A stretch of DNA of 64,000 bases from Desulfobacterales bacterium (GTDB lineage Bacteria > Desulfobacterota > Desulfobacteria > Desulfobacterales > SpSt-501): assembly GCA_037481615.1 (NCBI GenBank), contig JBBFLI010000007.1, one strand, 5' to 3'. This document shows positions 18,785 through 56,856 of the stretch, piece by piece. Positions within the stretch are counted from its first letter, which is position 1, and the number at the start of each line of letters is the position of its first letter. The position numbers and the translations under genes are program-made. Below the pieces are notes generated by a model, which was not told the origin of the DNA, did no database searches, and was given only the letters and a program-made list of their open reading frames with translations.

Positions 18785-18825
18785 AGACCGGGCGAGGGCG
18801 CCCGGGAGACGAAAGGAGCCGATCG

Positions 18826-19611
18826 TTGGGCGGACAGAACGGGACGGAGGGCGCCGTGCCGGGCGAAGCCACGGCCCACACGGCAGAGGGCGTCGACCGG
18901 GCCGGGCGGGTGCGTTTTCTGCTCGATGTGATCCACCGCGCGGCCCTGCACCACGGGCTGTGGTTCACCGAGGTACGCCACCAGCTGGGCATGCGGCGGG
19001 CGCTCGAGGCCCTCGATGCGGCCTGGAAGAGAAGCCTCGATATCCAGTTGAACCGGCTTTCGCGCATTCTCGGCTTCGAGCTGGAGGGGGGGCTGCCGCG
19101 GCCGCTGCTCGAGATGGAGGATGACGCCTTCGATCAGCTCCTCGAGGGGCTCTGCGCGAACTGGCTCGTGGGCGACGGGGTCTGGTTCCAGGCGGTCGAG
19201 TTCGCCCACGGGATGAACGACGCCAAGCGCTGCAACGACTCGGTCTGGGCCCAGTTCGCGCCGCTCGAAGCCTGGTCGATCCAGCGCCTGCTCGGGCTCC
19301 CCGAGCGCTCGGGGCTGGAGGGCCTCAAGCAGGCGCTCGCCTGGCGCATCTACGCCCGCATCAACGTCCAGTCCGTGGTCGAAGAGGGCCCGAGAAGCCT
19401 CGTCTTCCGCATGGAAGAATGCCGCGTCCAGTCCGCCCGCAAGCGCAAGGGACTCCCCGACTATCCCTGCAAATCGGCGGGGCTGGTCGAGTACGCCTAC
19501 TTCGCCCGCGCGATCGACGACCGCATCGTGACCGAGTGCATCGGCTGCCCGCCCGACCCTCACCCCGAGGGCTGGTACTGCGCCTGGCGCTTCAGCCTGC
19601 CCGACGGGTGA
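18826..19611 (+). CDS. Conserved hypothetical protein with C-terminal Cys motif (possibly ATC-hydrolase/DUF-type fold)
   Basis: TTG 18826 lies 7 nt after AAAGGAG and is in frame with the long track ORF. The coding-like part begins around RFLLDVIHRAALHHG. C-terminal YPCK...ECIGCPPDPHPEGWYCAW. Confidence 0.55.
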   Translation: MGGQNGTEGAVPGEATAHTAEGVDRAGRVRFLLDVIHRAALHHGLWFTEVRHQLGMRRALEALDAAWKRSLDIQLNRLSRILGFELEGGLPRPLLEMEDDAFDQLLEGLCANWLVGDGVWFQAVEFAHGMNDAKRCNDSVWAQFAPLEAWSIQRLLGLPERSGLEGLKQALAWRIYARINVQSVVEEGPRSLVFRMEECRVQSARKRKGLPDYPCKSAGLVEYAYFARAIDDRIVTECIGCPPDPHPEGWYCAWRFSLPDG

Positions 19612-19660
19612 ATCCCCGCGCGCCGCGCCCGGGCGCCTGGGGCGGCGGGGGCCGGTCCGC

Positions 19661-19689
19661 AAAAAAAGGCCCCGCCGCAGGGCGGGGCC
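19661..19689 (-). terminator. Rho-independent terminator of the 19717-20139 gene
   Basis: On the minus strand: GGCCCCGCC-ctgc-GGCGGGGCC (9-bp stem, 4-nt loop) followed by TTTTTTT. Confidence 0.8.
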
Positions 19690-19716
19690 GGAAACGGTGG
19701 GGGATGACGGCCCGGC

Positions 19717-20139: not shown

Positions 20140-20365
20140 CGCAAATCCCTCCTTTCTTCGGTTCGCGGAAACAACCCCCCCGCGCCGGCGGAACATGCGG
20201 CGGGGAATCTCCTGACGAAAAATCGGCGGGATCGACTAGGAAATTATGACGCCCCGGTCTCTTGTCAAGCCTCGGCGTCTCTCCAGGGCGCCCCCCCCGC
20301 TTGACGACCGCGGGCCTTCGTGGTTCAAGGGGATCTCCCCCGGCCCGCGCAAGGAGGATGTCGCG

Positions 20366-21655
20366 ATGGATCTCCAACCCGAGGATCTCCGCGTCGAGCG
20401 TCTCGGCCCCGCCCGTATCGACTCCCCGGTGACGGGGGTAAAGTTCGTCACCGAGCGGGATCAGGTGGTGTTCAGCCCGGTACCGGAGGACATCCAGGGC
20501 CATATCGCCTCCTTCGGCGCCCCCCTCGCCTTCGAGAAGGCCGGCCCCCGGCGCCGGATCTACTTCGACCCCGCCAAGCTGAAATGCGGCATCGTCACCT
20601 GCGGCGGGCTCTGCCCCGGCTTGAACGACGTCATCCGGGCCGTCGTCCTGAGCCTCTTCCACAACTACGGGGTGAAGACCGTCTTCGGGTTCCCCTACGG
20701 CTACGAGGGGCTGACCTATCGCCACGGCCATGTGCCCGTCGAGCTCACCCCGGCGGCGGTGAGCCGGATCCATGAATACGGCGGCACGGTGCTCGGCTCC
20801 TCGCGCGGCCCCCAGGACGTGGAGGAGATGGTCGACACGCTCGACCGCATGAACATCGGGGTCCTCTTCACCGTGGGGGGCGACGGGACGCTGCGCGGCG
20901 CCCAGGCGATCGCGGCCGAAATCCGGAAGCGGGGGCTGAAGATCGCCGTGGTCGGCATCCCCAAGACGATCGACAACGACATCTCCTACGTCGAGCGTTC
21001 CTTCGGCTTCGAAACCGCGGTCTCCCGCGCCGTGAGCGTGATCGACGCCGCCCACAGCGAGGCCAAGGGCGCCCGCAACGGCGTGGGGCTGGTCAAGCTC
21101 ATGGGCCGGGAGTCGGGGTTCATCGCCGTGTTCGCCACCCTGGCCCGGAGCGACGTCAACTTCTGCCTCATCCCCGAGGTCCCCTTCCGCATCGAGGCGC
21201 TCTGCCGAACGCTCGAGCGGCGGCTCGAGCAGAGCGGGCATGCCGTGATCGTGGTCGCCGAGGGAGCGGGGCAGGAGTTGACCGGGACGACCGGCGAGCG
21301 CGACGCCTCGGGAAACGTGAAGATGCGCGACATCGGGCCCTTCCTGCGCGATCGCATCCAGGAATACTTCCGCGGCCGCGGACTCGAACTCAACCTCAAG
21401 TACATCGACCCGAGTTACGCCATCCGCGGGGTGCCGGCGACCCCCCACGACTCGGCCTTCTGTCTGCTTCTCGGTCAGAACGCCGTGCACGCCGGCCTAG
21501 CCGGCTACACGAACCTCGTGGTCGGCTACTGGCTGCGGACCTTCACCCTGGTGCCGATACCGCTGGCGGTCTCGGAGCGCAAGAAGGTCGACCCCGACAG
21601 CTGGATCTGGAGCAGCGTCCTGACGAGCACGGGCCAGCCGCGGGAGTTGATCTGA
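20366..21655 (+). CDS. 6-phosphofructokinase, long (~430 aa) form
   Basis: ATG 20366 follows AAGGAGG. Motifs CGGLCPGLNDVIRAVV, GGDGTLRGA, IPKTIDNDI and MGRESGFIA. Confidence 0.9.
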   Translation: MDLQPEDLRVERLGPARIDSPVTGVKFVTERDQVVFSPVPEDIQGHIASFGAPLAFEKAGPRRRIYFDPAKLKCGIVTCGGLCPGLNDVIRAVVLSLFHNYGVKTVFGFPYGYEGLTYRHGHVPVELTPAAVSRIHEYGGTVLGSSRGPQDVEEMVDTLDRMNIGVLFTVGGDGTLRGAQAIAAEIRKRGLKIAVVGIPKTIDNDISYVERSFGFETAVSRAVSVIDAAHSEAKGARNGVGLVKLMGRESGFIAVFATLARSDVNFCLIPEVPFRIEALCRTLERRLEQSGHAVIVVAEGAGQELTGTTGERDASGNVKMRDIGPFLRDRIQEYFRGRGLELNLKYIDPSYAIRGVPATPHDSAFCLLLGQNAVHAGLAGYTNLVVGYWLRTFTLVPIPLAVSERKKVDPDSWIWSSVLTSTGQPRELI

Positions 21656-21675
21656 CGCCCGAGGAGGAGGGAAGC

Positions 21676-22824
21676 GTGACCATCCGCAGGATCGCCGTGT
21701 CGACCGGCGGCGGGGATGCCCCCGGGCTGAACGCCGTCATCCGCGCCGTCGTGCTTTCCTCCCTGCGCCGGGGGTGGCAGTGCGTGGGCATCCGCGACGG
21801 CTACAACGGCCTTCTCGACCCCCTGGCCGACCCCCGCGGCGGCCTGGTCGTGCTCGACCGCGATTCCGTCCGCGGCCTCACCCATCTCGGCGGGACGATC
21901 CTCGGGACGACGAACCGGGGAAACCCCCTGCGGTACCCCACGCCCACACCCGACGGGCGCACGGTCGAGCGCGACCGCACCGACGAACTCGTCGCCCGCT
22001 TCCGCGGGGAGGGCCTCGACGCGCTCGTCGCCATCGGCGGGGACGGCTCGCTCGAGATCGCTCATGTGCTCGCGGGCAAGGGGCTCAAGGTCGTGGGGGT
22101 CCCCAAGACGATCGACAACGACCTCGACCAGACGTTCGTCACCTTCGGCTTCGAAACCGCCGTCGAATTCGCCACCGAGTGCATCGACCGCCTCCACTCC
22201 ACCGCCGAGGCCCACCAGCGGATCCTCGTGATCGAGGTGATGGGGCGCTACGCGGGCTGGATCGCGCTCCACGCCGGGGTGGCGGCTTCGGCGGACGCGA
22301 TCCTCATCCCGGAGATCCCCTACGCGATCGAGCACGTGGCGGAGAAGATCGCCGCGCGGGAGCGGAGCGGGCGGCATTTTTCGATCGTGGTCGTGGCCGA
22401 GGGGGCCCGGCCCCGGGGCGGGGGGAGGACCCTCCAGGAGCCCGCCGCCGCCGGGCGCCCCGAACGCCTGGGCGGCGTGGGGGAAAAGGTGGCGGCGGAG
22501 CTTTCGCGCCTGACCGGCAAGGAGTCCCGGACGGTGGTGCTGGGCCACCTCCTGCGGGGGGGCAGGCCCACGGCGAACGACCGCTTGCTCGCCCTGCGCT
22601 TCGGTGCGGCGGCCGTGCGGGCGCTCGCCGAGGGGCAAAGCGGCGTCATGGTCGCCCTCAACCCCCCGGAGGTGCGCTATGTCCCCCTCTCCGCCGGCCT
22701 CCGGCGCATGAAGACCGTCCCCGTGGACGGCGACACCGTCCGGACCGCGCGCGATCTCGGCATCAGCTTCGGCGACGCGGAACCCTCGCCCTCAAGTCCG
22801 GCCTCCCCGCGGCCGATGAGATGA
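21676..22824 (+). CDS. 6-phosphofructokinase, second paralogue
   Basis: GTG start follows GAGGAGGAGGG. Motifs STGGGDAPGLNAVIRAVV, GGDGSLEIA, VPKTIDNDL and MGRYAGWIA. Confidence 0.9.
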   Translation: MTIRRIAVSTGGGDAPGLNAVIRAVVLSSLRRGWQCVGIRDGYNGLLDPLADPRGGLVVLDRDSVRGLTHLGGTILGTTNRGNPLRYPTPTPDGRTVERDRTDELVARFRGEGLDALVAIGGDGSLEIAHVLAGKGLKVVGVPKTIDNDLDQTFVTFGFETAVEFATECIDRLHSTAEAHQRILVIEVMGRYAGWIALHAGVAASADAILIPEIPYAIEHVAEKIAARERSGRHFSIVVVAEGARPRGGGRTLQEPAAAGRPERLGGVGEKVAAELSRLTGKESRTVVLGHLLRGGRPTANDRLLALRFGAAAVRALAEGQSGVMVALNPPEVRYVPLSAGLRRMKTVPVDGDTVRTARDLGISFGDAEPSPSSPASPRPMR

Positions 22825-27273: not shown

Positions 27274-29133
27274 CTATAGCATCGGCGTCTGCCCGGCGCA
27301 AGGGCTTTCCGGGGGGGGAGTCCCGCCGTTTTCCGCCTGGGCCTGGTGGAGCCGGAAGTAGAAACCGCGCCGCTCCATCAGGGCGGCGTGGGTCCCGGTC
27401 TCGAGGATGCGGCCGCCGAGGAGGACGAGGATCTCGTCCGCCGCGCGCACGGTGGACAGACGGTGGGCGACGAGGAGGGCGGTGCGCTCGGCGAGCAGCC
27501 GCTCGAGGGCGTCCTGGATCGCCTGCTCGGTCTCGGAGTCGACGGCCGAGGTCGCCTCGTCGAAGAGGATGATCTCCGGGTTGCGGGCGAAGGCGCGGGC
27601 GATGGCGACGAGCTGCCGTTCCCCGGCGGAGATCGCCCCCCCCCCTTCCCCCAGCGGCGAGTCGAGCCCCGCGGGCAGGCGCTCGAGCAGGCGATCGAGG
27701 CGCGCGGCCTCCACGATGCGCGCCTCCTGCACCGGGGAGGGCGGCGGCAGGCCCTGGAAGATGTTCTCCCGCAGGGTGCCCGCGAAGAGCGTGGGGTCCT
27801 GGAGGACGAGGGCGAGCCGGTCGCGGATCGCCGCCCTGGGCCAGGCGCGCAGGTCGACCCCGTTCAGCAGGATGCGCCCCGCCGTGGGGTCGTAGAGGCG
27901 CGGGATGAGCTGGAGGAGGGTGCTCTTGCCGGCGCCGGTCGGCCCGACGACGGCGGTCGTCGCACCGCGCCGCAGGCGGAAGGAAATCCCCTTCAGGACG
28001 GGCTCCCCGGGCACATAGGCGAACTCGACGTTCTCGAAGCGCAGCTCCTCGACCCGCGAAAGGCGGGGGGCGGCCTTCGCCGGAGGCTCGCGCAGCGGGT
28101 TGGGCGTGTCGAACACGAGGAAGATGCGCTCGACCGAGGCGAGCGCGTTCTGGAGCACGTTGTATTTCTCCCCGAGATCCCGGAGCGGCCGGAAGAACAT
28201 GCGGATGTAGGTGAGAAAGGCGACGAGCGCGCCGAGGCTGACCGCCCCGCCGGGCACGCGGCTTCCGCCGTAGCCGATCACGAGCGCGACGGCGGCCAGG
28301 GAGAGCACCTCGATCAGCGGCAGGAAGACCGCGAGCACCCGGATCTGCTCCATGCCGGTCCGGTAGTTCTCGAGGTTGAGGCGCGCGAAGCGCTCGAAAT
28401 TGCGGTCTTCGGCGCGGTGGATCTGGATCACGCGCAAACCGCCGATCGTCTCGGCGAAGCGGGTGTTGATCTCGGCCGTCTGGATGCGCAGCGTGCGGAA
28501 GATCTCGCGCGCCCGCCGCGAGAAGTGCGCGGCCGCGACGGCGACGGGCGGCAGCACGAGAAAGGTGACGAGGGCGAGCCGCCAGTCGAGAACGAGGAGC
28601 ACGGCGGCGATCCCCGCGATCAGCAGGAGATCCTTGAAGAGGAACGAGAGAAAGGAGGTGAAGAGCTCGTAGAGGTTCTGGACGTCGCCCGTCAGCCGGG
28701 TCACGACCCGGCCCACGGGGTTCTTGGCGAAGAAGTCGAGGGGCAGATCCTGCGTGTGGGCGTAGAGCCGCATCCGCAGATCGTGCATGATGCGCTGGCC
28801 GGTCGCCTCCATGAGGACGGACTGGGCGAAGGAAAAGAGGAAATGCAGCAGGACGAGCAGGCTGAAGGCCGCCGCCGTGAGGGAGAGCCCCTGCAGCGCG
28901 GCTTCGGCGGCGGCGGGGTCGCCGCCTGCGGCCGGCAGGATGAAGCGGTCGATCGCATGGCGGATCAAGAGCGGCAGCGCGAGATCGAGCAGCGTAATCA
29001 GAAGCACGAGGGCGATCGAGCCGGCGAGCAGCGCGCGGTGCGGGCGGATCAGGGGCCGCAGGCGCAGGAGCTGGCGGAAATCGTAGCCCCCGATCGGCCG
29101 GACATCCTCGAAATCGAGCGGCTCACGCGGCAT
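27274..29133 (-). CDS. ABC exporter, fused permease/ATPase (MdlB/MsbA-like), subunit 2
   Basis: Start moved to ATG 29133 (MPREPLDF). Six-TM N-terminal half. Walker [11 protein letters not shown], signature ISAGERQL, Walker B ILFDEATS. Overlaps the upstream partner by 11 nt. Confidence 0.9.
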
Positions 29134-30871
29134 GGGCGGCCTCCTCGATCGCCTGGAGGTGAAAGGCGTGCGCGTAGTAGGCCTGGCGCTGCAGCAGCTC
29201 GGCGTGGGTGCCGAGGGCGGCGAGCCGGCCGCGGTCGAGGACGGCGATCCGGTCCGCGAAGCCGACCGCGGCGATGCGGTGGGAGGCGATGCAGATCGTC
29301 CTCCGGCCGACAAGCGACCGGATCGTCCGCAGGATCACCGCGGCGGTGGCGAAGTCGACCTGACTCACGGGGTCGTCGAGGAGCAGCACGGGCGCCTCGG
29401 CGAGCAGGCAGCGGGCGAGCGCGACGCGCTGCTTCTGGCCGCCGGAGAGCAGCACCCCGCGTTCGCCCACCACGGTGTCGAACCCCGCGGGCAGGGCGCG
29501 CACGGTCTCCAGGAGCGCGGCCGCGGCCGCGGCCTCTTCGAGGCGCCGCTCCGGGATCGCCGGGTCGCCGAGCGTGAGATTGTCGCGGAGGGTCCCCGAG
29601 AAAAGGAAGGCCTCCTGGGGCAGCAGGCAGACCGCGCGTCGCAGGTCCTCCAGGCGGAGCTCCCGCAGGTCCCGCCCGTCGAGCCGGATGCGGCCCGCCG
29701 TCGGGTCGTAGAGCCGGGGGAGGAGGCTGAGGAGCGTGCTCTTCCCGCTTCCCGGCGGCCCCACGATCCCGAGCACGGACCCGGCGGGGACGACGAGATC
29801 GATCCCCTCGAGGGCGGATCGCCCCGCCGCCCCCGGATAGGCGAAGGAGACGCCCTCGAAGGCGATGTCCCCGCGCGGCCGCGGCAAGGGCCTGGCCCCC
29901 GTCGGGGAGGCGATCGCCGGCGCCTCGGCGAGGATGGCCGCGATCCGCTCGAGGGAGGCCTTCCCCCGCTGGACCAGGTTCGTCACCCAGCCGAGGGCCA
30001 TCATCGGCCAGGCGAGCAGGCCGAGGTAGGTGATGAAGGCGACGAGGTCGCCCACGGTGATCGCGCCGAGGATCGTGCGCCGGCCGCCGACGAGAAGGAC
30101 GAGGACGAGGCCGGCGCTCGTGAAGAGGAGCATCAGGGGGGAGAACACCCCCGTCACGCGCACGAGCTTCAGGTTTTCCTCGAGGAAGTCCCGCGACACC
30201 CGTTCCACCCGCAAGGCCTCGACATCCTGGCAGTTGTGGGCCTGGATGAGGCGGACCCCGGCGATGCGCTCCCGCACCGCCTCGGTCAGGGCGGCGAAGG
30301 AGACCTGGACCGCCTGGTAGCGGCGGTGCATGCGTCGGCTGAAGAAGCGGGTGCCGAGGGCGACGAGCGGCATCGGGAGCAGCGCCCAGACGGTCAGCAC
30401 GGGGTCGATGTAGGCCATGAAGGCGATGGCCGCCGTGCCCATGATCACGGCGTCGTTCAGCGCGACGATCCCCATGCCGGCCGCCATGCGGATCTGCTGG
30501 AGGTCGTGGGTCGCGCGGGCCATCAGGTCGCCGGTGGTCGTGCGGTCGAAGTAGGCCGTGGGGAGCCGCTGCAGATGCGCGAAGAGGCGGTCGCGCAGGC
30601 CCTGCTCGATTCTCCGGGAGGTGCCGAGCAGGCACATGCGCCAGGCGTAGCGGAAGACCCCGACCAGCGCCGCAAGCCCGAGGATCGCGCCCGCCTGCGC
30701 CGCGAGCCTGCCGGTCTGCGGTTCGGCGAGCGCGAGGTCGTCGACGGCGTGCTTGATCACCCGCGGGATGACGAGCTGGAGCAGATCGACCAGGATCAGG
30801 CTCCCCAGGCCGGCGAGGATCCGGTTCCGGGATTCGGCGAAGTAGGGTCGGATGAGCTCGAGCGAGGGCAT
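29123..30871 (-). CDS. ABC exporter, fused permease/ATPase, subunit 1
   Basis: Start at ATG 30871 (MPSLELIRPYF) inside a 1292-aa track ORF. Walker A GPPGSGKSTLL, signature LSGGQKQR, Walker B LLLDDPVS. Confidence 0.9.
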   Translation of the reverse strand: MPSLELIRPYFAESRNRILAGLGSLILVDLLQLVIPRVIKHAVDDLALAEPQTGRLAAQAGAILGLAALVGVFRYAWRMCLLGTSRRIEQGLRDRLFAHLQRLPTAYFDRTTTGDLMARATHDLQQIRMAAGMGIVALNDAVIMGTAAIAFMAYIDPVLTVWALLPMPLVALGTRFFSRRMHRRYQAVQVSFAALTEAVRERIAGVRLIQAHNCQDVEALRVERVSRDFLEENLKLVRVTGVFSPLMLLFTSAGLVLVLLVGGRRTILGAITVGDLVAFITYLGLLAWPMMALGWVTNLVQRGKASLERIAAILAEAPAIASPTGARPLPRPRGDIAFEGVSFAYPGAAGRSALEGIDLVVPAGSVLGIVGPPGSGKSTLLSLLPRLYDPTAGRIRLDGRDLRELRLEDLRRAVCLLPQEAFLFSGTLRDNLTLGDPAIPERRLEEAAAAAALLETVRALPAGFDTVVGERGVLLSGGQKQRVALARCLLAEAPVLLLDDPVSQVDFATAAVILRTIRSLVGRRTICIASHRIAAVGFADRIAVLDRGRLAALGTHAELLQRQAYYAHAFHLQAIEEAAHAA

Positions 30872-30983
30872 GGCGGAGTCCCGCGACACGGCGGGGCACG
30901 AGGGGGGGGCTCGCGCCGCCGTGGGGGTTGGATAACACAGGAACCCGCGATCGACAACGCCGCGCCCGGCCCGCCCCGCGGCG

Positions 30984-31012
30984 TTGACTTCGCCATCCCC
31001 GGTTGCTATCTT
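30984..31012 (+). promoter_or_regulatory. Putative sigma70-type promoter placed for a leaderless RNase II-family mRNA
   Basis: TTGACT (30984-30989), 17-nt spacer, TATCTT (31007-31012). The ATG at 31019 is only 6 nt downstream, with no SD sequence. Confidence 0.45.
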
Positions 31013-31018
31013 GGCAAT

Positions 31019-33022
31019 ATGGAAGTTGGGAATATTGTTGAATATATCGATCGCGAGCGCATCCTCTGCGCCGTGATCCTCGAAATACGCAACCAGCGCC
31101 TCAAGCTCCTGACCGAGAACAACCGCGAGGTGAGCCTCTCGGCGGGGAGACTCTTGCGTCTGGACACCACCCGGCTCGACCCCGGGATGGGGCGTTTCCG
31201 CCTGGTCGACCGCCTGCGCGAGGTGGCCGAGAAGAGAAACGCGCTCGTTTCCGCGGTCACGATCCGCGATCTCTGGGAGGTGCTCCACCCCGAAAACGAT
31301 TGGATCGACCTCGAAACCCTCACGGCCTTCTGCTTCCCGGGCGAGGCGAACGGGGATCACCAGTCCGCCGTGATGCGCGCGGTCTTCAACGACCGGCTCT
31401 ATTTCCGCTTTCACCCCGGCCGATTTTTCCCCAACCCGCCCGATCAGGTCGAGCGGCTCTTCGCCCGTCGGGAAGCCGAGGCCCGGCGGGCGCGGTTGAT
31501 CGAGCAGGGCGGGGCCTGGCTGCGGCAGGCGCTCTCCCGCACCGGCCCCCCCCCGGCGGAGGCGGCGGGCGAGGTGCCCGGGGAGTGCCTGCGCCTCATC
31601 CGCGACTTCTTCCTCTTCGGCCGGGAGGCCGCCGACCACGATACGGCGCGGGCGCTTCTCGAACGGGCCGGCGTGGACCCCGCGGGGGATCTCTTCCCCC
31701 TCTGCGTGCGGCTGGGGCTCTTTTCCGAGGACGAGAACCTCGACCTCCATCGCCTGCGCGTGCCGGTCGAGTTCCCGCAGGAGGCGCTCGAGGCGGCGCA
31801 GCGGCTCGTCGCCCCCCGGCCTTCGGCCCCCGCGTCCGGCCTCGCCGGGCGGGTTGACCTCACCGGCCTCGAGCTCTTCACGATCGACGGCCAGGCGACG
31901 CTCGATTTCGACGACGCTCTCAGCCTCGAGACCCTCCCCGACGGGCTGCGGCTGGGCGTGCACATCGTGGACGTCGCCCACTTCGTGCGTCGGGACGACC
32001 CCCTCGACCGGGAGGCCCGCCGGCGCGGCAGTTCGATCTATCTCCCCGACCAGCGGATCCCCATGCTGCCCGCGCCGCTCGCCGAGGGCTTGTGCAGCCT
32101 GCGGGCGGGGGAGGTGCGCCCGGCGATCACGACCTTCATCGATCTCGCCTCCGACCTGAGCGTGCGCGGCTACCGCATCCTGCCGAGCTGGGTGCGGGTG
32201 AAGGAACAGCGGACCTATTTCGACGTGAACCTGCTGGCCGACCAGGACCCGAAGCTCCTGCGGCTGCGCAGCATCGCGCGCGCCTTCCGCGAGGCGCGCC
32301 TGGCGGCCGGCGCCGTGCACATCGCCGTGCCCGAGGTGAACGTCTGGATCGCCGAAAACGGCGAGGTTCACGTGAGCCGCCTGAACCGCGAGAGCCCGGC
32401 GCGCATGCTGGTGGCCGAGATCATGATCCTCGCCAACTGGCTTGCGGCGCGCTGCCTTGCCGAAAACGGGCTGCCCGCCGTGTTCCGCGCGCAGCCCGAG
32501 CCGCGCGAGCGGCTCTACGCGGGCGAGGGGGGGAGCCTCTTCCAGCAGTGGATGCAGCGCCGGCTGCTCAACCGCTTCGTCCTGAGCCCGGCCCCCGGGA
32601 AGCACTCGGGGCTGGGGCTTTCGGCCTACGTGACGGCGACCTCCCCCATCCGCAAGTACTACGACCTCGTGACCCAGCGGCAGATCCGGGCCGTGCTCGG
32701 CCTCGAGGCGCCATACGGCGCCGCGGAAATCGAGGCCCTCCTCGAGGACCTCGCCCTCCCGATGAGCCGGGTCGCCCAGCTGCAGGCCGCCCGCCATCGC
32801 TACTGGCTTCTGCGGTTCCTTGAGCGCCGGGTGGGGGAGAAGGAGGAGGCGATCGTCCTGCAGCGGCGCCGCAACGGCTACCAGATCCTGCTCACCGAGT
32901 ACATGCTCGAGTGCGATCTGCCCGACACGGGCGGGCCGGAGCTCTTGCCCGAGGACCTGATCCAGGTGACCCTGCAGGCGGTGAACGCCCGCAAGGACCA
33001 CATCGCTCTCACCATCGGCTGA
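31019..33022 (+). CDS. RNase II/R-family 3'-5' exoribonuclease
   Basis: Start at ATG 31019 inside a 1296-aa track ORF, giving 667 aa. RNB motif TIDGQATLDFDDALSLE. C-terminal S1-like segment. Confidence 0.85.
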   Translation: MEVGNIVEYIDRERILCAVILEIRNQRLKLLTENNREVSLSAGRLLRLDTTRLDPGMGRFRLVDRLREVAEKRNALVSAVTIRDLWEVLHPENDWIDLETLTAFCFPGEANGDHQSAVMRAVFNDRLYFRFHPGRFFPNPPDQVERLFARREAEARRARLIEQGGAWLRQALSRTGPPPAEAAGEVPGECLRLIRDFFLFGREAADHDTARALLERAGVDPAGDLFPLCVRLGLFSEDENLDLHRLRVPVEFPQEALEAAQRLVAPRPSAPASGLAGRVDLTGLELFTIDGQATLDFDDALSLETLPDGLRLGVHIVDVAHFVRRDDPLDREARRRGSSIYLPDQRIPMLPAPLAEGLCSLRAGEVRPAITTFIDLASDLSVRGYRILPSWVRVKEQRTYFDVNLLADQDPKLLRLRSIARAFREARLAAGAVHIAVPEVNVWIAENGEVHVSRLNRESPARMLVAEIMILANWLAARCLAENGLPAVFRAQPEPRERLYAGEGGSLFQQWMQRRLLNRFVLSPAPGKHSGLGLSAYVTATSPIRKYYDLVTQRQIRAVLGLEAPYGAAEIEALLEDLALPMSRVAQLQAARHRYWLLRFLERRVGEKEEAIVLQRRRNGYQILLTEYMLECDLPDTGGPELLPEDLIQVTLQAVNARKDHIALTIG

Positions 33023-39468: not shown

Positions 39469-42400
39469 TCAGTGCGCCCGCGCGGCCTGCATGCGCCGGT
39501 GGAGGCGTTCCGCCCGCAGGAGGAAGGCCTCGAGCTTGGCGTGGATGAGCTGCGGGAAGGGCGAGCCGTCGGTTTCGATCGCCAGGAAGGGCAGTTCCTC
39601 GATGCCCTCGAGCACCGGGCCCAGGCTGCCGTCGAAGGCGAGGCGGTCGCGGGCGGTCATCGCCTCGCTGAGGATCGCCTCGGAGACGCGGTTCGGCATG
39701 CAGCCGAAGGGTCCGATCGCGATCACGCCGCAGCTGTGGCGCACGATTTCCCGCAGCGCCCCGCCGACGGTGAGCACGGCCTCGCCGGTCAGGTCGGGCG
39801 AGAGGTGCGGCCGGGCGTGTTCGATCACCGAGGCGACATCCGGCATCTCGCCGCGCAGCAGACCCGAGGCGGCGAGGATCGCGCGGATTTGCTTCTCGTA
39901 GCGGCTCTGGAAGAAGTTGCGCAGCTTGAGCTTGAGCTTCTGCAGCGCGCCCATCGGGTCCTGGTTGAAGCCGTGGTCGATGAGGTAGTTGCAGTAGTGG
40001 ACCCACTCGGCGACGGGCGCGCACAGGGCGGCGAAACCCTTCTCGGCGAGGCGCTCGGTCAGGTACTGGCGCGAGAGGGCGTCGCGGCGCACGAAGATCT
40101 CGCCGGTCAGGCTGATCGTGGGCACGCGGGCGGGGTCGGTGCGCAGCGGGATCGCACGGAAGCGCTGGGCGGCGGCGCGGAGCGCCGCGCAGAGGACCTG
40201 GAAATCGGCCCGCTCCATCGCGCTCCGGATGTCCGCCCACTCGGCCTCGAAGACGGCCATCGCCGCCTGCGGGTCGGCGGCGGCCGCGAGCAGCATGGAG
40301 CGGATGTCCTCCAGGGTGTCGGAGACGATCACCGCCCACCAGGCGTGCCGCTCGAAGTCCTTGTCCATGCCGACGTAGGAGTTGTCCGAAGAGAGCGCGA
40401 GCACGGCCACGTCGGGGATTTCCAGCCGCCGCACGAGATCCTCCATGAAGATCGCATACTGCCCGAAGCGGCAGGGACCGGAGCCGGTCGGCATGAAGTA
40501 GACCAAGACCTCGTCGGGGCGCTTGCCGTTGCGGATGTAGCCGAGCAGCGTGCCGGTCGTGAGGATGAGCGGCAGGCACTCCTTGCAGGAGGTGTTGGCG
40601 CGGCCGAGCTTGAGCACGGCTTCGTCGTTTTCGCGGGCGGCCCGGGCGTGGAGCCCGTAGCCCTTCAACACGGCGGCGAAGGCTTCGGTCCCGAGCCGGC
40701 CCATGGAGGGGATGAGCACGGTGACGCGCGGGTCGGTCATGGGGAGGGTCTCGCCCCTCGAGGTGACGACCCGGGCCCCCGACTCCTCGAGGAGGATGCG
40801 CGCGGGGCGGAACTCCGTGCGGCGCGGGGCGATGTGTTTCCGGGAGACGAGCATCCGGTAGGCGCGCACGATGTCGAGGAAGGCCTCGATGCGCGTCTCC
40901 AGGCCGGCGTCCGCCGTGTGGCTGTCGAGCTCGAGGGTGAGCGAGGGCTTGCGGCCGAGGATGTCCCGGAAGTAGGTGATGACGAAGGAGTCGGGCCCGC
41001 AGGAGAAATTCGTGATGTAGGCGCCGAAGAGCTGCGGGTGCCGCTCGGTCAGCCGCGCCGCCTTGAGGATGAGCTTGCCCATCCCCCAGTACATGTGCCG
41101 TTTGGCCCGCTCGGAGCCGAGATCGAGCGCCTCGAGCGGGAGCACGGCGATTCCGCGCGAGGCGAACTTGTGGGGGATGCCCTTGTTCGCCTCGGAGGCG
41201 TAGGCGCTGTAGGGTCGGCCGAAGAGCACCACGGCGAAGCGCCCGGGGTCGGCGGCGAGCTCCGCGAGCAGCCGGTCGCCCGCCGCCCGCAGATCCCGGA
41301 GGAAAGCCTTCTGGGCCTCGAGCGCGGTCGCAAAGGCCCTTTTCGCCCGGCGGGCGTCGAAGCCCATCGCGCGGGCCGCCTCCCGGAGCGGCTTCTCGGC
41401 GCTTTCGACCCCGCGGGAGAGGTCGAGCAGCGGCCGGAGCAGGCGCACGCCCCGGCGCTTGAGCTCCGCGAGTTCGCCGCGGAAGGCGGCCTGCAGGTAG
41501 TAGGTCTCGCCCTGGACGAGCGGGCAGACCTGGGACTGGAGGCTCGTCTGGGGGTCCGTGTTGGGCACGGCCTTGAAATGGGGCAGGAAGACGAACTCGG
41601 CGGGCTCCCCGGCCGCGAGCAGCCGGTGGCAGAACCCGTGGGCGAGCTCGGCCGGGTAGCAGAAGGGGGCGCCGCGGCGGTCCATGCCTTCCTGGGTGGG
41701 GGCCTCGGGCACGACGATGTCGAGGCCCAGCTCGGCGAAGAAGCGCGCGTAGAGGGGATAGAAGGTGTGCACGAGAAAGCTGCGGTTGATCGCCACCCGC
41801 GGCCGGCCGCGGGACTCCCCGGGGGAAAGCGGCGGCACCCCGTGGGTCTCGAAGAGCAGCCGCTCGCGGAGGCTCACGAGATCGAGCGCCTCGACGTCCA
41901 CGCTCACGCGGCGGCGCAGGTTCTCGTAGCGGTTGCAGGCCCCCCCGAAGGGGAACTTTCTCCCCTCGACCCCGATCACCCGGATCGCGCAGCGCCGGTC
42001 GCAGCGTTCGCGGCCGCCGCGGCAGGTGAAGCCGCCGTGGTAGGCCACCTCGCGGGAGGCGAGCGCCTCGAGATCGAAGCGGCCCTCGGCGATCTCCCCG
42101 CTGCGGATCCGCCGGTCGACCTCGAGCGCGACGCCGAAGGCGCCCATCAGCCCCGGTTCGGGGGGGACGACGATCGGCTTGCCGACGAGCCCGGCCATGG
42201 CGAGCGGCACCGCCTCGTTGTAGCAGACCCCGCCCTGCATGAAGACCTTTTCGCCGACCGGCCGGTTGCCCTTCACCCGGTTCGTGTAGTTCATGCAGAT
42301 CGAGTAGACCAGTCCGGCCACGATGTCCTCGCGGGGGAGCCCCTCGTGGATCGCGTTCTTGATGTCGGAGGCGATGAAGGCCGCGCACTGGTCGTTGAAA

Positions 42401-43821
42401 TTGGGCGGCCGCCGGCCCTGCAGCGCGATGCCGGCGATCTCCTCCATCGGCACCCCGAGGGTCTCCTTGGCCGACTCCTCGAGGAAGGAGCCGGTCCCGG
42501 CCGAGCAGGCCTCGTTCATCGCGTAATCGGAGGGCACGCCGTTCGTGATGTAGGTGTACTTCGCGTCCTGGCCGCCGATCTCGAAGATCGTATCGACCCC
42601 GGGGTCGAAGTAGACCGCGGCCGTCGCGTGCGCGATGATCTCGTTGATCACCCCGTCGGTGAGGGCGTGGAGCCCCGCGATCTGGCGGCCCGAGCCCGTG
42701 ACCCCCAGCCCCGCGATCGTGATCTCCCGCGGGTCGACCGCGGCGCGCACCTGCTCGAGAACCGCCCGGTAACACAGGCGGGAGGCGCCGACGGGGTCGC
42801 CGTTGGTCCGGCGGTAGTCGGAGGCGAGCAGCGCACGGTCCGCGCGGCGCAGCAGCACCGCCTTGGTCGTGGTCGACCCGACATCCAGGCCGAGCAGGCA
42901 GACGTCGCCCGGGCGGATCGTGCCGCGCGCGATCGACTTGAACTCCACCTGCGGGCGGAACTCGGCGAGCGGCGGCAGCCGGTCGAAGGAGGCCGCTCCC
43001 TCGACGAAGAGCTTTTCCATCCCGGGGAAGGGGCGGGTTTCGTTTTCGAGCGCCCAGAGGGCGGTCCCCAGGGCCTCGAAGTAGGGCGCCTCCTCGGGGA
43101 CCACGAGGTCGGGGATTTCCCGGCGCAGGTAGGCGATCATCATCCGGTTTTGCGCCGTGCCCCCGGTGACCATGACGGCCCGCCGCTCCACCTTCTTCAG
43201 GAGCTCGAGGATCTTGTTCGCCATCATGCGGCAGAGCCCGGCCGTCACCTCGGCCTTGGGGATGCCCTTGTTGGTCGCGTGGGTGCAGTCGGACTTGCAG
43301 AAGACCGAACAACGGCCGGAGACGGGGTAGGGCCGCTCGACGGCGGCGAACCGCGCGGCCTCCTCGAGGGAGACGTTCATGCGGCGCAGCTGCTGCAGGA
43401 AGAACTCCCCCGTGCCCGAGGCGCATTTGTTGCCGGTGATGACGTTTCCGATGCGGCCGTGGCGGTCGAGGACGTAGACCATGAACGTCTCGCCCCCCGC
43501 GGAGACGACGGCGGGGCAGTCGACGCCTTCGGGCTTGACGAAGGGGTAGGCCGCCTCGACGGCCTCGGGCTCGGGGATGGAGGTGAGGTGGACGAAGGTG
43601 CGGAATTTCCGCCCGGTGGCGGCGATGCGCTCGGCCGACGCCGGCTCGATCGCGGCCAGCGCCTTCTGCAGGGCCGCGCGCGGGTTTCCCTCGTGGGCCA
43701 GGAGAAAGACCCGGGTGATGCGGGGCTTCGCCCCCGGCCGCGCGGCGTCCGTTTCCAGACGGACGGCCGAGATGGTCGACGCCCCCAGGCAGATACCGAT
43801 CGAAGAGGATGCGCGTTTCAT
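39469..43821 (-). CDS. BCR/HAD radical-enzyme family fusion: 2x BcrAD/BadFG (HgdC-like) ATPase + DUF2229/2-hydroxyacyl-CoA-dehydratase-like halves (PlsA/PlsR-type architecture)
   Basis: 1450 aa from ATG 43821. ATPase module 1: IGICLGASTISAV, GNKCASGTGEF, SGRCSVFC. ATPase module 2: LGLDVGSTTTKAV, NEACSAGTGSF, NDQCAAFIASD. These are followed by Cys-rich CRGGRERCDRRC and two dehydratase-like halves (CYPAELAHG...; TSCKECLPL...GSGPCRFGQY). Confidence 0.9.
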   Translation of the reverse strand: MKRASSSIGICLGASTISAVRLETDAARPGAKPRITRVFLLAHEGNPRAALQKALAAIEPASAERIAATGRKFRTFVHLTSIPEPEAVEAAYPFVKPEGVDCPAVVSAGGETFMVYVLDRHGRIGNVITGNKCASGTGEFFLQQLRRMNVSLEEAARFAAVERPYPVSGRCSVFCKSDCTHATNKGIPKAEVTAGLCRMMANKILELLKKVERRAVMVTGGTAQNRMMIAYLRREIPDLVVPEEAPYFEALGTALWALENETRPFPGMEKLFVEGAASFDRLPPLAEFRPQVEFKSIARGTIRPGDVCLLGLDVGSTTTKAVLLRRADRALLASDYRRTNGDPVGASRLCYRAVLEQVRAAVDPREITIAGLGVTGSGRQIAGLHALTDGVINEIIAHATAAVYFDPGVDTIFEIGGQDAKYTYITNGVPSDYAMNEACSAGTGSFLEESAKETLGVPMEEIAGIALQGRRPPNFNDQCAAFIASDIKNAIHEGLPREDIVAGLVYSICMNYTNRVKGNRPVGEKVFMQGGVCYNEAVPLAMAGLVGKPIVVPPEPGLMGAFGVALEVDRRIRSGEIAEGRFDLEALASREVAYHGGFTCRGGRERCDRRCAIRVIGVEGRKFPFGGACNRYENLRRRVSVDVEALDLVSLRERLLFETHGVPPLSPGESRGRPRVAINRSFLVHTFYPLYARFFAELGLDIVVPEAPTQEGMDRRGAPFCYPAELAHGFCHRLLAAGEPAEFVFLPHFKAVPNTDPQTSLQSQVCPLVQGETYYLQAAFRGELAELKRRGVRLLRPLLDLSRGVESAEKPLREAARAMGFDARRAKRAFATALEAQKAFLRDLRAAGDRLLAELAADPGRFAVVLFGRPYSAYASEANKGIPHKFASRGIAVLPLEALDLGSERAKRHMYWGMGKLILKAARLTERHPQLFGAYITNFSCGPDSFVITYFRDILGRKPSLTLELDSHTADAGLETRIEAFLDIVRAYRMLVSRKHIAPRRTEFRPARILLEESGARVVTSRGETLPMTDPRVTVLIPSMGRLGTEAFAAVLKGYGLHARAARENDEAVLKLGRANTSCKECLPLILTTGTLLGYIRNGKRPDEVLVYFMPTGSGPCRFGQYAIFMEDLVRRLEIPDVAVLALSSDNSYVGMDKDFERHAWWAVIVSDTLEDIRSMLLAAAADPQAAMAVFEAEWADIRSAMERADFQVLCAALRAAAQRFRAIPLRTDPARVPTISLTGEIFVRRDALSRQYLTERLAEKGFAALCAPVAEWVHYCNYLIDHGFNQDPMGALQKLKLKLRNFFQSRYEKQIRAILAASGLLRGEMPDVASVIEHARPHLSPDLTGEAVLTVGGALREIVRHSCGVIAIGPFGCMPNRVSEAILSEAMTARDRLAFDGSLGPVLEGIEELPFLAIETDGSPFPQLIHAKLEAFLLRAERLHRRMQAARAH

Positions 43822-43860
43822 GGCTGACCCAGGCAACCGCTCGAATCACCGAAACAAACT

Positions 43861-53749: not shown

Positions 53750-54265
53750 ATGATGTACAACCAGGTCGTGATGGATCATTTCCGCAACCCCCGCAACGTC
53801 GGGGTGATCGAGGACGCCGACGGCGTGGGCGAGGTCGGAAACCCCCTCTGCGGCGACATGATGACCATCTACCTCAAGGTCCGCGACGAGCGGATCGAGG
53901 ACATCAAGTTCCAGACCTTCGGCTGCGGCTCGGCGATCGCCGTCTCGAGCATGCTGACCGAGATCGCCAAAGGCAAGACGATCGAGGAGGCCAAACGCAT
54001 CACCAACCAGGATGTGGCCGAGGCCCTCCAGGGGCTGCCGAAGAACAAGCTGCACTGCTCCAACCTCGGCGCCGACGCCCTGCAGATGGCGATCCGCGAC
54101 TACGAGGCCCGCAAGGCGGGGATCCGAAGGCCGGAGCCGAAGCGCAAGGACGAGCACGAGCATTCCCACGGGGACAAGTGCTACTGTCCGTACTGCGATG
54201 TCGAGGTCGAGGAGGGGGCGAGCTTCTGCGAGGCCTGCCAGCACGATCTGAAGGAAGAACACTGA
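53750..54265 (+). CDS. iscU: Fe-S cluster scaffold IscU/NifU-N with C-terminal His-rich + zinc-ribbon-like tail
   Basis: GAGGAGG lies upstream. Scaffold Cys blocks NPLCGDMM, FGCGSAIA and LHCSNLG. Extra tail DEHEHSHGDKCYCPYCDVEVEEGASFCEACQHD. Confidence 0.9.
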   Translation: MMYNQVVMDHFRNPRNVGVIEDADGVGEVGNPLCGDMMTIYLKVRDERIEDIKFQTFGCGSAIAVSSMLTEIAKGKTIEEAKRITNQDVAEALQGLPKNKLHCSNLGADALQMAIRDYEARKAGIRRPEPKRKDEHEHSHGDKCYCPYCDVEVEEGASFCEACQHDLKEEH

Positions 54266-54299
54266 CCCGCGCAGGGGCTGCACCGGGGGAGGCCGGCCG

Positions 54300-55478
54300 A
54301 TGAGCTTCGTCAACCTGGATCACATCTCCGCGAACCCGCTCCTGCCCGAGGTGAAGCGGGCGATGATCGCGGCGATCGAGCACGATTACCACAACCCCTC
54401 GAGCCAGCACCGGCGGGGGGAGGAGGCGGCCGCGGCGCTCGAGCAGGCCCGCGCCGAGGTGGCGCGGCTGGTCAACGCCGAGGACCCCCGGGAGATCGTC
54501 TTCACCTCGGGGGGGACGGAGTCGGTCAACCACGCGATCAAGGGGGTGGCGCTCGCGAACGCCGACCGGGGCCGGCACATCGTCACGACGAACATCGAGC
54601 ACAACGCCGTGATCCGCAGCCTCCGGAGGCTGAAGTCCCAGGGCTTCACGGTGACGAGCCTCTCGGTCGACGGGCACGGCCGCGTGGACCCCGCGGCCGT
54701 GGCCGCGGCGATCACGCCGGAGACGATCCTCGTCTCGGTCATGCACGCGAACAACGAGACCGGGACGCTGCAGCCGATCGCCGAGATCGCGGCCGTCGCC
54801 CGGGAGAGGAAGGTCCTCTTCCACACCGACGCCGTGGACTCCGTGGGGGTCGTGCCCTTCGATGTGCGGCAGATCGGGGCCGATCTGGTGAGCTTCGCCG
54901 CCAACGCCTTCTACGGGCCGGCCGGCGTGGGCGGGCTCTACATCCGCAAGGGCGTGAAGATCTTTCCGCTCCTCGACGGCGGGGTCCAGGAGCACAACAA
55001 GCGGGCCGGGACCGAGAACCTGATCGGGATCCTCGGCATGGGGGCCGCGGCCGCGCTCGCCCGGCGCGAACTCGCCTCCCGCACGGCGCATCTCTCGCGG
55101 CTGAAGACGCTCTTTCTCGAGGGGCTCGCGGCGGAGATCGACGAGGTGATCGTGAACACGCACCCCGTGCACAGCCTGCCGCACCTCGTCTCGGCCTCCA
55201 TCCGCTACGTCGAGGGGGAGAGCGTCATGCTCATGCTCGACGACGAGGGCTTCGGGGTCTCGACCCGCTCGGCCTGCGCGACGGGGTCGCTCCGGGCCTC
55301 GCACGTGCTGCTCTCCCTCGGGCTGAGCCACGCGGACGCCCAGGGGACGATCCTCGTCTCCTTCGGCCTCGAGAACACCGAGGAGGACGTGCGCCGCTTT
55401 CTCGCCGCGCTCAAGAAGGTCGTCACCACCCTGCGCGGCATCTCGCCCCTCTACCGCAAGAAGGCCTCCACGGGTTGA
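54300..55478 (+). CDS. NifS/IscS-family cysteine desulfurase homologue lacking the PLP-binding lysine
   Basis: 392 aa, class V aminotransferase fold (TSGGTESVN, IEHNAV, HTDAVDSVG). The persulfide loop STRSACATGS is retained. The canonical S-x-H-K block reads SFAANAFYGPAGVGGLYIR, so both His and Lys are absent. Confidence 0.88.
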   Translation: MSFVNLDHISANPLLPEVKRAMIAAIEHDYHNPSSQHRRGEEAAAALEQARAEVARLVNAEDPREIVFTSGGTESVNHAIKGVALANADRGRHIVTTNIEHNAVIRSLRRLKSQGFTVTSLSVDGHGRVDPAAVAAAITPETILVSVMHANNETGTLQPIAEIAAVARERKVLFHTDAVDSVGVVPFDVRQIGADLVSFAANAFYGPAGVGGLYIRKGVKIFPLLDGGVQEHNKRAGTENLIGILGMGAAAALARRELASRTAHLSRLKTLFLEGLAAEIDEVIVNTHPVHSLPHLVSASIRYVEGESVMLMLDDEGFGVSTRSACATGSLRASHVLLSLGLSHADAQGTILVSFGLENTEEDVRRFLAALKKVVTTLRGISPLYRKKASTG

Positions 55479-55487: not shown

Positions 55488-56213
55488 GTGGCGGAGCAGC
55501 CCTTCGACCGCGTCGCCCGCGACTACGAGGCGATCCACGAAAAAAGCCTCCCCCCCGGGGTCCACAGCGGGGAGTTCGTCCGGCAGAAGGCCGAGACCCT
55601 CGCCCCCCTCTTTTCCCTCGAGGCGGCCGGAGGCTTCGACTACCTCGACTTCGGCTGCGGCAACGGGAGGCTGTTCGCCGCGCTCGCGCGGGAGCCGCGC
55701 CTGCGGGCCGCCCTGGAAGCCGGACGGTTGCGCTTCTTCGGCTACGACCCCTCGGGGGAGTCGATCGCCGCGGCCCGCGGGATCGTCGCCCCGCTTCCGG
55801 TCCGGCTCGCAAGCCGACTGGAGGATCTGCCGCCGCAGGTGCGCTTCGATCTCGTCGTGAGCTGCAACGTCTTCCACCACATCGCCCCCGCCGAGCGGCC
55901 GCAGACGGTGGAAAGGCTTCGCGGGCTGCTCAAGCCGGCGGGGCGGGTTTTGATCTGGGAGCACAACCCGTTCAACCCCTTCGCCCGGCTCGTCGTGGCG
56001 GCCTGCCCCTTCGACCGCGGGGCGGTGCTGCTGCCGCTCGCCGAGGCGAGCGCCCTCTTTGCGCGCGCCCGTCTGCGACGGGTCGCCCACGCCTATGTGA
56101 ACGTCGTCCCGCCCGGCTGGGGGCGCCTCCCCGGGGCCGCACGGCTCGAGCGCAGGCTTTCCCGTCACCCGTTCGGCGCCCAGTACTGGGCGCTCTTCGC
56201 GCGCGATGCCTAA
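55488..56213 (+). CDS. Class I SAM-dependent methyltransferase
   Basis: GTG start. Motif I YLDFGCGNGRL. Later block LLKPAGRVLIWEHN. Confidence 0.75.
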   Translation: MAEQPFDRVARDYEAIHEKSLPPGVHSGEFVRQKAETLAPLFSLEAAGGFDYLDFGCGNGRLFAALAREPRLRAALEAGRLRFFGYDPSGESIAAARGIVAPLPVRLASRLEDLPPQVRFDLVVSCNVFHHIAPAERPQTVERLRGLLKPAGRVLIWEHNPFNPFARLVVAACPFDRGAVLLPLAEASALFARARLRRVAHAYVNVVPPGWGRLPGAARLERRLSRHPFGAQYWALFARDA

Positions 56214-56856
56214 CCCGGTCGCCTCGGCCTGGAGGATCTACCGCGGAGCCCCGCTCCCCGTGCGGCTGCACGTGCTCGTCCGGGCGCTCACCTGCCCCCT
56301 GGGCGCGCTCGCCGCGCGCTTCCCGCGGGAGGGGACCGCACTCGATGTCGGCTGCGGGCACGGCCTGCTCGTCCACCTCCTCGCCCGCGACCCCCGCAGG
56401 CCGCGGTTGCGGCTTGCGGGCATCGACCACGACGCCGCGAAGATCCGCGCCGCCCGCGCCGTCCCCGCGCCGCGCGCGCGCTTCTGGGCGCTCCCCCTGG
56501 AGGCCCTCCCCGCGGCGGCCTTCGATTTCGTCTCCGTCGTGGACGTCCTCTACACCGTGCGGCGGGACTCCTGGCCCGGCCTGCTCGCCGGCTGCCGCCG
56601 CGTGCTCAAGCCCGGCGGCGCGCTCCTGCTCAAGGAGGTGATCGACCGGCCGCGCTGGAAGCACCGCGCGATCCTGCTCCAGGAGACGGTCTCGGTCCGG
56701 CTGCTCGGGATCACGAAGGGCGACCCCCCGCACTTCGAGTCCCCCGCGGGTTACGCCCGCGCGCTCCGGGAGTCGGGGTTTTCCCCCTTCGAGGAAGCCC
56801 CCCTATCGTCCTTCCACTGGGTGAGCCATTACCTGATCCTCGCCCGCCGCCGCTGA
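56206..56856 (+). CDS. Class I SAM-dependent methyltransferase (second)
   Basis: Overlaps the previous gene by 8 nt. Motif I ALDVGCGHGLL. Later block VLKPGGALLLKE. Confidence 0.75.
   Translation: MPNPVASAWRIYRGAPLPVRLHVLVRALTCPLGALAARFPREGTALDVGCGHGLLVHLLARDPRRPRLRLAGIDHDAAKIRAARAVPAPRARFWALPLEALPAAAFDFVSVVDVLYTVRRDSWPGLLAGCRRVLKPGGALLLKEVIDRPRWKHRAILLQETVSVRLLGITKGDPPHFESPAGYARALRESGFSPFEEAPLSSFHWVSHYLILARRR

Follow-up and report, generated by a model that had tools for sequence, protein, structure and literature searches.

A lysine-less, inactive IscS paired with IscU is already known from the archaeon Archaeoglobus fulgidus (since 2012–2015) and suspected for IscS1 of Methanosarcina acetivorans. 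A. fulgidus IscS, in which Asp occupies the site of the Schiff-base Lys, has no desulfurase activity and provides, through its Cys, a ligand for the [2Fe-2S] cluster of IscU D35A (PMC7585200; PMC13066941). It was crystallized with non-covalent pyridoxamine 5′-phosphate (PMP), pyridoxal 5′-phosphate (PLP) was modelled in the complex, and the D199K variant still held PMP (PMC8918507). The protein raised the question of how [2Fe-2S] forms on IscS–IscU without desulfurase chemistry, and, A. fulgidus being a sulfate reducer, sulfide has been put forward as the source of the sulfur (PMC8918507). So far, this protein has been viewed as a lone peculiarity of an archaeon. Here, we describe an IscS/NifS-like gene located 34 nucleotides (nt) downstream of iscU in a 64,000-nt stretch of DNA (the window) from a Desulfobacterales bacterium (GenBank assembly GCA_037481615.1, contig JBBFLI010000007.1), in whose product the same four catalytic residues are replaced. 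A first-pass annotation of the window, made from the sequence alone, had described A. fulgidus IscS as lysine-less, inactive and free of PLP; the first two points agree with the literature (PMC7585200; PMC8918507), whereas the third does not, given the bound PMP and the modelled PLP.

Three further systems were compared with the locus. M. acetivorans carries three IscSU copies, including a functional PLP-dependent IscS2; its IscS1, which is reported to lack the catalytic Lys and lies beside its own IscU, was proposed to be A. fulgidus-like, and recombinant IscS1 was insoluble alone, hinting at dependence on IscU (PMC7585200). We liken the window protein to IscS1 by description only, both being lysine-less with an IscU of their own, whereas IscS1 is archaeal and uncharacterised. 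The minimal iron–sulfur cluster (ISC) system, MIS (MisS–MisU), is likewise a two-gene module of anaerobes, consisting of a desulfurase-like protein and a scaffold without hscBA, fdx, iscA or iscR, and reportedly can use sulfide (PMC13066941; PMC12192291). However, it has been described with an active cysteine desulfurase, and the reviews mention neither loss of the Lys nor a Cys-rich IscU tail. The SMS system (SmsCB) of methanogens is similar in function only, being desulfurase-free with a Cys-rich C-terminal cluster site and demonstrated sulfide use (PMC12192291); its proteins are unrelated and comprise a SufBC-type ATPase scaffold.

Active site of the IscS-like protein

Residues were compared between 37 sequences of the clade to which the window protein belongs (clade A) and 106 canonical sequences with the His-Lys (H-K) pair. 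The two genes and the codons concerned are:

53750–54265 (+): iscU, Fe-S scaffold, 171 amino acids (aa) plus stop; Pfam NifU_N, E = 3.2e-52
54285–54292 (+): Shine-Dalgarno-like GGGGGAGG, 7 nt 5′ of the ATG of the IscS-like gene, read from the sequence
54300–55478 (+): IscS/NifS-like gene, 392 aa plus stop; type I desulfurase fold without four catalytic residues
54327–54335 (+): residues 10–12, S-A-N; A-T-T in canonical enzymes (94/93/92%)
54837–54839 (+): Asp180 (E. coli Gln183, hydrogen bond to PLP O3′); Asp in 37/37 of clade A, Gln in 106/106 canonical sequences
54903–54908 (+): Asn202-Ala203 (E. coli His205-Lys206, Lys206 being the PLP Schiff-base lysine), from the alignments
55275–55277 (+): Cys326, mobile-loop cysteine (E. 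coli Cys328), loop TRSACATGS; invariant in clade A
55353–55355 (+): Leu352 (E. coli Arg354, which positions the substrate alpha-carboxylate and Cys-aldimine), from the residue comparison

The whole-length likeness to class I cysteine desulfurases that the first-pass annotation had noted by eye was recovered with profiles. Pfam Aminotran_5 (PF00266) matched residues 6–367 (profile positions 3–371 of 371, E = 3.8e-72) with 243.7 bits against a gathering cutoff of 21.5, and the NCBIfam NifS model TIGR03402, which has 379 positions, matched residues 5–384. The protein missed the equivalog cutoffs of NifS (TIGR03402, 423.3 vs 530.75) and IscS (TIGR02006, 340.2 vs 643.2; NF010611, 345.7 vs 548). A Foldseek search with its AlphaFold2 model gave template modelling (TM) scores of ~0.8 to NFS1, A. 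fulgidus IscS and E. coli IscS; because the mean predicted local distance difference test (pLDDT) score was moderate (68.8), with low values at the active-site loops, the model was used for fold confirmation only. The G + C content at third codon positions (GC3) of the gene was 0.97, as in real genes of the same genome, and its product was identical to a database record from a Desulfobacterales metagenome-assembled genome (MAG).

The DNA at 54891–54920 (agc ttc gcc gcc aac gcc ttc tac ggg ccg) encodes S198-F-A-A-N202-A203-F-Y-G-P, exactly as the first-pass annotation had read it. HMMER aligned the protein to 9wep, its best homologue of solved structure, and set SFAANAFYGP without gaps over SFSAHKMYGP, so that His is replaced by Asn202 and the PLP-lysine column holds Ala203. 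The profile alignment suggested as a check therefore confirmed the replacement of His-Lys by Asn-Ala and placed no lysine in that column, and the persulfide Cys loop (STRSACATGS) was also found intact, with C326 at 55275–55277. The loss extends further than was first noticed: the same alignment sets HTDAVDSVG over HTDAVQSLG, and both Gln183 and Arg354 are replaced, by Asp180 and Leu352. In total, four positions that are 98–100% conserved in canonical enzymes are replaced in clade A, namely Gln183, His205, Lys206 and Arg354 in E. coli numbering (Gln183 and His205 100%, Arg354 98%). The position of Leu352 is Val or Leu across the clade, with Val in most members.

Canonical NifS/IscS proteins (E. 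coli IscS, Helicobacter pylori NifS) share with the window protein the fold, length, dimer architecture, Cys loop, His104, Asp180 and SPL segment; what the window protein lacks relative to these families (TIGR03402, TIGR02006) is Lys206, His205, Gln183 and Arg354. In IscS, His205 makes a phosphate contact and Arg354 anchors the carboxylate. The E. coli IscS variants K206A and Q183E are each inactive, and Arg354 accelerates deprotonation of the Cys-aldimine (PMC9978102). PLP-dependent C–S cleavage should thus be impossible for the window protein because the Schiff-base Lys, the adjacent His, the Gln at PLP O3′ and the substrate-positioning Arg are all lost, and the subunit would no longer be a cysteine desulfurase.

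The remainder of the site is retained. T73, E74, H101 (E. coli His104), N151, N152, D177 (E. coli Asp180), S198, R235 and C326 are kept and invariant in clade A, and the residues around the cofactor ring and phosphate as well as the C-terminal LRxISPLY segment are kept in the window protein. S10 is invariant in clade A; at residues 10–12 A. fulgidus IscS reads S-A-K. The replacements N202 and D180 are themselves invariant while position 203 varies (T/P/S/A/N, never Lys); the pocket therefore seems still to be under selection and, judging from this pattern, still in use. A compensating Lys at a new position can be rejected, since K81 and K234 are the sole Lys residues with at least 90% conservation in clade A and both positions also hold Lys in canonical enzymes (47% and 17%, respectively). 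Separately, Arg323 (55266–55268), two residues ahead of the loop Cys, gives TRSAC where canonical enzymes have SGSAC; Arg occupies this position in 86% of clade A and Gly in 95% of canonical enzymes.

The closest described likeness is to A. fulgidus IscS2–IscU (PDB 4EB5, 4EB7, 4HVK, 4R5F). Both IscS proteins have the type I desulfurase fold with the loop Cys kept and are paired with a ligand-intact IscU, and the A. fulgidus host is a sulfate reducer. In the alignment, A. fulgidus IscS reads HIDATASVG, SSNDIYGP and GTLLLTLG (Q to A, H to N, K to D, R to L), so that the four positions hold A/N/D/L there and D/N/A/L here. The two differ in that A. fulgidus IscS is archaeal and has its acidic residue at the Lys position, whereas that of the window protein is at the Gln position. 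Relatives of A. fulgidus IscS are moreover linked to TusA/DsrE and short IscUs, unlike the window, which has no relay genes and an IscU with a five-Cys tail. The kinship proposed in the first-pass annotation thus stands as regards the four substitutions and fails as regards close descent: the window protein is 43% identical to A. fulgidus IscS vs 46–49% to canonical enzymes, and the likeness is for that reason probably parallel rather than orthologous. A. fulgidus IscS groups at 51–53% identity with three other lysine-less lineages. In a neighbour-joining tree it falls outside clade A, with bootstrap values below 10% at the deep nodes, and 30 of 36 lysine-less sequences lie on one side, also with bootstrap below 10%. 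The identities argue that the A. fulgidus group and clade A are separate lineages.

Clade conservation and the companion IscU

The Schiff-base Lys was absent from all 120 nearest database proteins, which are 74–100% identical to the window protein and come from many independent samples; all read S-[FI]-[AG]-[SA]-N-[TAP]-x-x-G-P together with DA(V/A)DS. Eighty loci from GTDB species genomes comprised 39 of clade A, four of a second lysine-less clade (clade B) and 37 canonical ones. The clade A loci, at 62–79% identity, all have N-[TPSA], Asp180 and the TRSAC loop, and the clade received 100% bootstrap support; their hosts are named Desulfobacterales, Thermodesulfobacteriota, Desulfonema, Desulfotignum, Desulfatibacillum and an Olavius symbiont. 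Clade B, at ~51% identity, has N-P at the Schiff-base site, and its position 180 holds Ala. The 37 loci with identities of ≤50% were canonical without exception. Nei-Gojobori ratios of nonsynonymous to synonymous substitution (dN/dS) were 0.06–0.10 for the closest pairs, with a median of 0.14 over 346 pairs, and the protein is under strong purifying selection. Within two related MAG loci, a TAG replaces the Ser324 codon (TCG) in the Cys loop of the IscS-like gene (L037), and both iscS and iscU are frameshifted (L036); these are probably MAG or nanopore assembly errors and not true inactivation.

Among 36 full-length clade A loci, the IscS-like gene was kept in 36 and an IscU directly upstream in 35, and the flanking genes of the window were kept in 0–7. 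Since only iscU and iscS are syntenic, the unit is a two-gene module of the MIS type. We infer co-transcription of the pair from the Shine-Dalgarno-like motif and the 34-nt gap. No hscBA, fdx, iscA or iscR-type family was present in the Pfam annotation of the window flanks. The gap, the synteny and the purifying selection support the earlier suggestion of a non-catalytic partner for the adjacent IscU, whereas calling that partner purely structural goes further than these observations.

The partner itself is a NifU-type scaffold: it scored 198.5 bits with NCBIfam TIGR03419 (NifU_clost), over the cutoff of 187.9, and among solved structures it is closest to the A. fulgidus IscU of the IscS–IscU complex (4eb5_C, E = 1.1e-55). 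Its parts are:

53750–54115 (+): core, residues 1–122, with ligands C34, D36, C59, H102 and C103; AlphaFold2 pLDDT ~70–94
54116–54169 (+): linker, residues 123–140, charged and His-rich; predicted disordered, pLDDT <50 at 134–140
54170–54262 (+): C-terminal tail, residues 141–171, C144-x-C146-x-x-C149-D150...C160-x-x-C163, zinc-ribbon-like

The same five ligands occur in 37/37 clade A, 4/4 clade B and 8/8 canonical neighbours. Beyond the core, the window IscU carries about 50 additional, unannotated C-terminal residues (123–171; 54116–54262). All 37 IscUs of clade A and all four of clade B carry the five tail Cys and D150, and H136, H138 and H140 of the linker are invariant in the IscU alignment (A1). 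The tail was found in every IscU beside a lysine-less IscS of clade A or B (L001–L042, L049, L064) and was absent from the eight IscUs adjoining canonical H-K enzymes. Tailed IscUs are abundant, with 120 clusters at ≥79% identity and 170–172 aa, annotated merely as "NifU-like". The tail matched Pfam Zn_Ribbon_1 at E = 7.8e-4, below the cutoff, and resembles the CPxC...CxxC ribbon of 9sfa (E = 0.0018); the structure model gave it four short beta bridges at pLDDT 62–74. Taken together, these data make it look like a small zinc ribbon, though its five Cys are one more than such a fold needs. When the tail alone was searched against PDB sequences, 4eb5_C was unmatched at E ≤ 10, residues 126–153 of A. 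fulgidus IscU not being in view. To regard the Cys-rich region of SMS as an analogue of the tail would be speculation.

The occurrence of lysine-less IscS in bacteria is no surprise in principle. However, the same four-residue knock-out is fixed here in a large and abundant bacterial clade (~39 GTDB species, hundreds of metagenome clusters), which turns an archaeal curiosity into a widespread, testable bacterial system. The clade includes the culturable genera Desulfatibacillum, Desulfonema and Desulfotignum and therefore offers experimentally tractable bacterial systems. Our literature search found no bacterial lysine-less IscS clade, four-residue-loss signature, tailed IscU or TusA–DsrE–IscS–IscU linkage, an absence that is in itself no proof. 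The current gene name "cysteine desulfurase (family protein)" points to a systematic mis-annotation, through which reconstructions of the metabolism of sulfate reducers may, in error, attribute to these genes the mobilisation of sulfur from cysteine.

Sulfur supply to lysine-less IscS proteins

We favour, with modest confidence, a model in which the IscS-like protein is a non-catalytic partner that donates Cys326 to IscU within a minimal, sulfide-fed ISC module. The two genes would form a MIS-like Fe-S assembly module in the Desulfobacterales bacterium. Because the dimeric fold, the cofactor residues, the LRxISPLY segment and Cys326 are kept, the subunit most likely still docks IscU as an (IscS–IscU)2 complex, and Cys326 would serve as the fourth ligand or as a hand-over residue for the nascent [2Fe-2S] cluster, as in the A. 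fulgidus complex. Sulfur would come from free sulfide, made in excess by a sulfate reducer, and non-covalent PMP or PLP may be retained as a structural cofactor. The sulfide-rich anaerobe imagined in the first-pass annotation agrees with the naming of the host as Desulfobacterales.

Several points weigh against this model. We infer inactivity, complex formation and the sulfur source alike, and the AlphaFold2 model is weak at the active site and the Cys loop. No dsr or apr gene was present in the window annotation, so that "sulfate reducer" rests on taxon names. The invariance of T73, H101, N151, D177 and S198, together with that of the replacements D180 and N202, makes some non-canonical chemistry in the conserved pocket possible. 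A non-catalytic partner leaves the five-Cys IscU tail unexplained. Finally, other lysine-less lineages, including those nearest to A. fulgidus IscS, adjoin TusA/DsrE carriers, which suggests that the Cys may have been kept to transport persulfide sulfur and not just as a cluster ligand.

These other lineages are numerous. Among the 150 most similar representatives of clusters at 50% identity (P0121–P0270), 22 (about 15%) lack the PLP Lys, with varying replacements at His-Lys (N-Q, Q-Q, H-R, N-D, S-A and others); nearly all of the 22 also lost the Gln183 and Arg354 equivalents and retained the loop Cys. Of the 24 other lysine-less lineages, every one has the loop Cys and Asp177, and 22 have His101; Gln183 and Arg354 survive in one each and His205 in six. 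The lineages linked to TusA/DsrE are the lysine-less ones closest to A. fulgidus IscS. The order TusA–DsrE–IscS–IscU, with the IscS lysine-less, surrounds P0247 (in L084 and L085, 2394–4577); P0187 shows the same order with a TusA fragment (L088, 2–2131), and P0191 lies in the order ferredoxin–TusA–IscS (L081, 2378–4185). P0124 follows a NuoF-like gene, and the contexts of P0127 and P0200 were uninformative. The IscUs of the TusA/DsrE-linked operons have 129–131 aa and no tail. These gene orders suggest a sulfur relay feeding a dead desulfurase, and dead IscS proteins appear to occur in at least two architectures, one with sulfur-relay neighbours and one, as in the window, with a Cys-rich IscU tail; that the two are functionally equivalent would be speculation. 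Tailed-IscU, TusA/DsrE-linked and canonical loci form a natural comparative series with which to ask whether ISC-type machines can run on sulfide or on relay sulfur.

The relay-linked lineages make a persulfide shuttle a live rival, though a considerably less probable one than direct use of sulfide. In this scheme the protein would no longer make persulfide from cysteine; Cys326 would receive sulfane sulfur from a different source, for example an intact desulfurase encoded at another site of the genome, a relay of the TusA/DsrE type or polysulfide, and pass it to IscU. Conservation of the loop Cys in all 24 lineages, the three independent lineages with TusA-containing orders and the clade-specific Arg ahead of the Cys are consistent with such a role. 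E. coli IscS is known to bind TusA, and the structure 3lvj is among the Foldseek fold matches. By contrast, tblastn at E ≤ 1e-3 detected neither TusA nor DsrE homologues in the window or any of the ~40 clade A/B loci, and iscU is the sole syntenic neighbour. A tblastn search of the 64-kb window also gave no second class-V desulfurase.

That the protein is a regulatory or chaperone-like pseudoenzyme, a cap or stabiliser of IscU or a sensor of sulfide or iron that gives neither ligand nor sulfur, is improbable in our view. Strong conservation combined with loss of catalytic residues is the typical pattern of such proteins, and the insolubility of lysine-less M. acetivorans IscS1 on its own (PMC7585200) would suit it. 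However, this role leaves the invariant loop Cys of every lysine-less lineage unexplained, and in the A. fulgidus structure the Cys is bound to the cluster (PMC7585200; PMC13066941).

It is still more improbable that the protein remains an enzyme that uses non-covalent PLP or PMP in a different or slower reaction, perhaps with another substrate, and with Asp180 and Asn202 newly catalytic. The pocket residues named above are invariant though only 28% of clade columns are, D180 and N202 are fixed while position 203 is free, and A. fulgidus IscS binds PMP (PMC8918507). On the other side, the general base, that is, the Schiff-base Lys, and the substrate-anchoring Arg are both lost, and the Lys has no clade-specific substitute. 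The E. coli K206A and Q183E variants are inactive (PMC9978102), and the A. fulgidus D199K back-mutant kept PMP (PMC8918507).

Sequencing or assembly error, which the first-pass annotation had named as a possible objection, and recent decay to a pseudogene can be dismissed, since the Lys is missing from all 120 closest proteins and ~39 genomes alike, the frame is intact and full length with low dN/dS and the GC3 of real genes, restoring Lys from GCC takes at least two base changes, H-K is not recoverable by any frameshift, and the only probable errors seen are those in L037 and L036, with none in the window gene.

A broader proposal, which we put forward tentatively and think rather unlikely to hold, is that the tailed IscU and the dead IscS form a distinct, self-contained, sulfide-dependent Fe-S machine widespread in sulfate-reducing Desulfobacterales, in which the tail replaces PLP chemistry and the pocket is repurposed. 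The five-Cys, His-rich tail might bind sulfide or iron and hand it on, house a second cluster or act as an electron source, and the dead pocket (D180, N202, H101, D177) might hold PMP or dock the tail. If this were true, then together with the TusA–DsrE–IscS–IscU operons it would mean that desulfurase-independent ISC-type assembly arose repeatedly and is common in anoxic sulfidic biology.

Other genes in the window

Rfam and tRNA scans of the window returned nothing, and a promoter and terminator scan around the iscU–iscS pair was uninformative at 70% GC. Ten nt past the stop of the IscS-like gene lie two tandem, slightly overlapping S-adenosylmethionine (SAM)-dependent methyltransferase genes (55488–56856), which are probably outside the module because the arrangement is common to only 2 of the 36 related loci. 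The other genes include those for beta-oxidation, an IcmF-like mutase, formate-tetrahydrofolate ligase, a BcrAD/BadFG-type activase and B12-radical-SAM enzymes, a content typical of an anaerobe with many Fe-S clients.

A 1152-aa fusion of B12-binding, MeaB-type GTPase and methylmalonyl-CoA-mutase domains (12513–15968, –; IcmF-like) adjoins thiolase, 3-hydroxyacyl-CoA dehydrogenase and acyl-CoA dehydrogenase genes. A 1455-aa protein with two BcrAD_BadFG ATPase stretches and DUF2229 (39472–43836, –), of the CoA-enzyme activase type, adjoins a nitroreductase-family gene. Tandem phosphofructokinase-family paralogues of 469 and 382 aa are encoded at 20246–22821 (+). The 1296-aa RNB-domain (RNase II/R-like) open reading frame (ORF) at 29132–33019 (+) lacks a Pfam match over the initial ~770 residues, and because its called start overlaps a convergent ATP-binding cassette exporter ORF (27277–29334, –), translation probably begins further downstream. 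At 18559–19716 (–), a 386-aa stop-to-stop ORF without a Pfam match has a GC3 of 0.75, below that of its neighbours.

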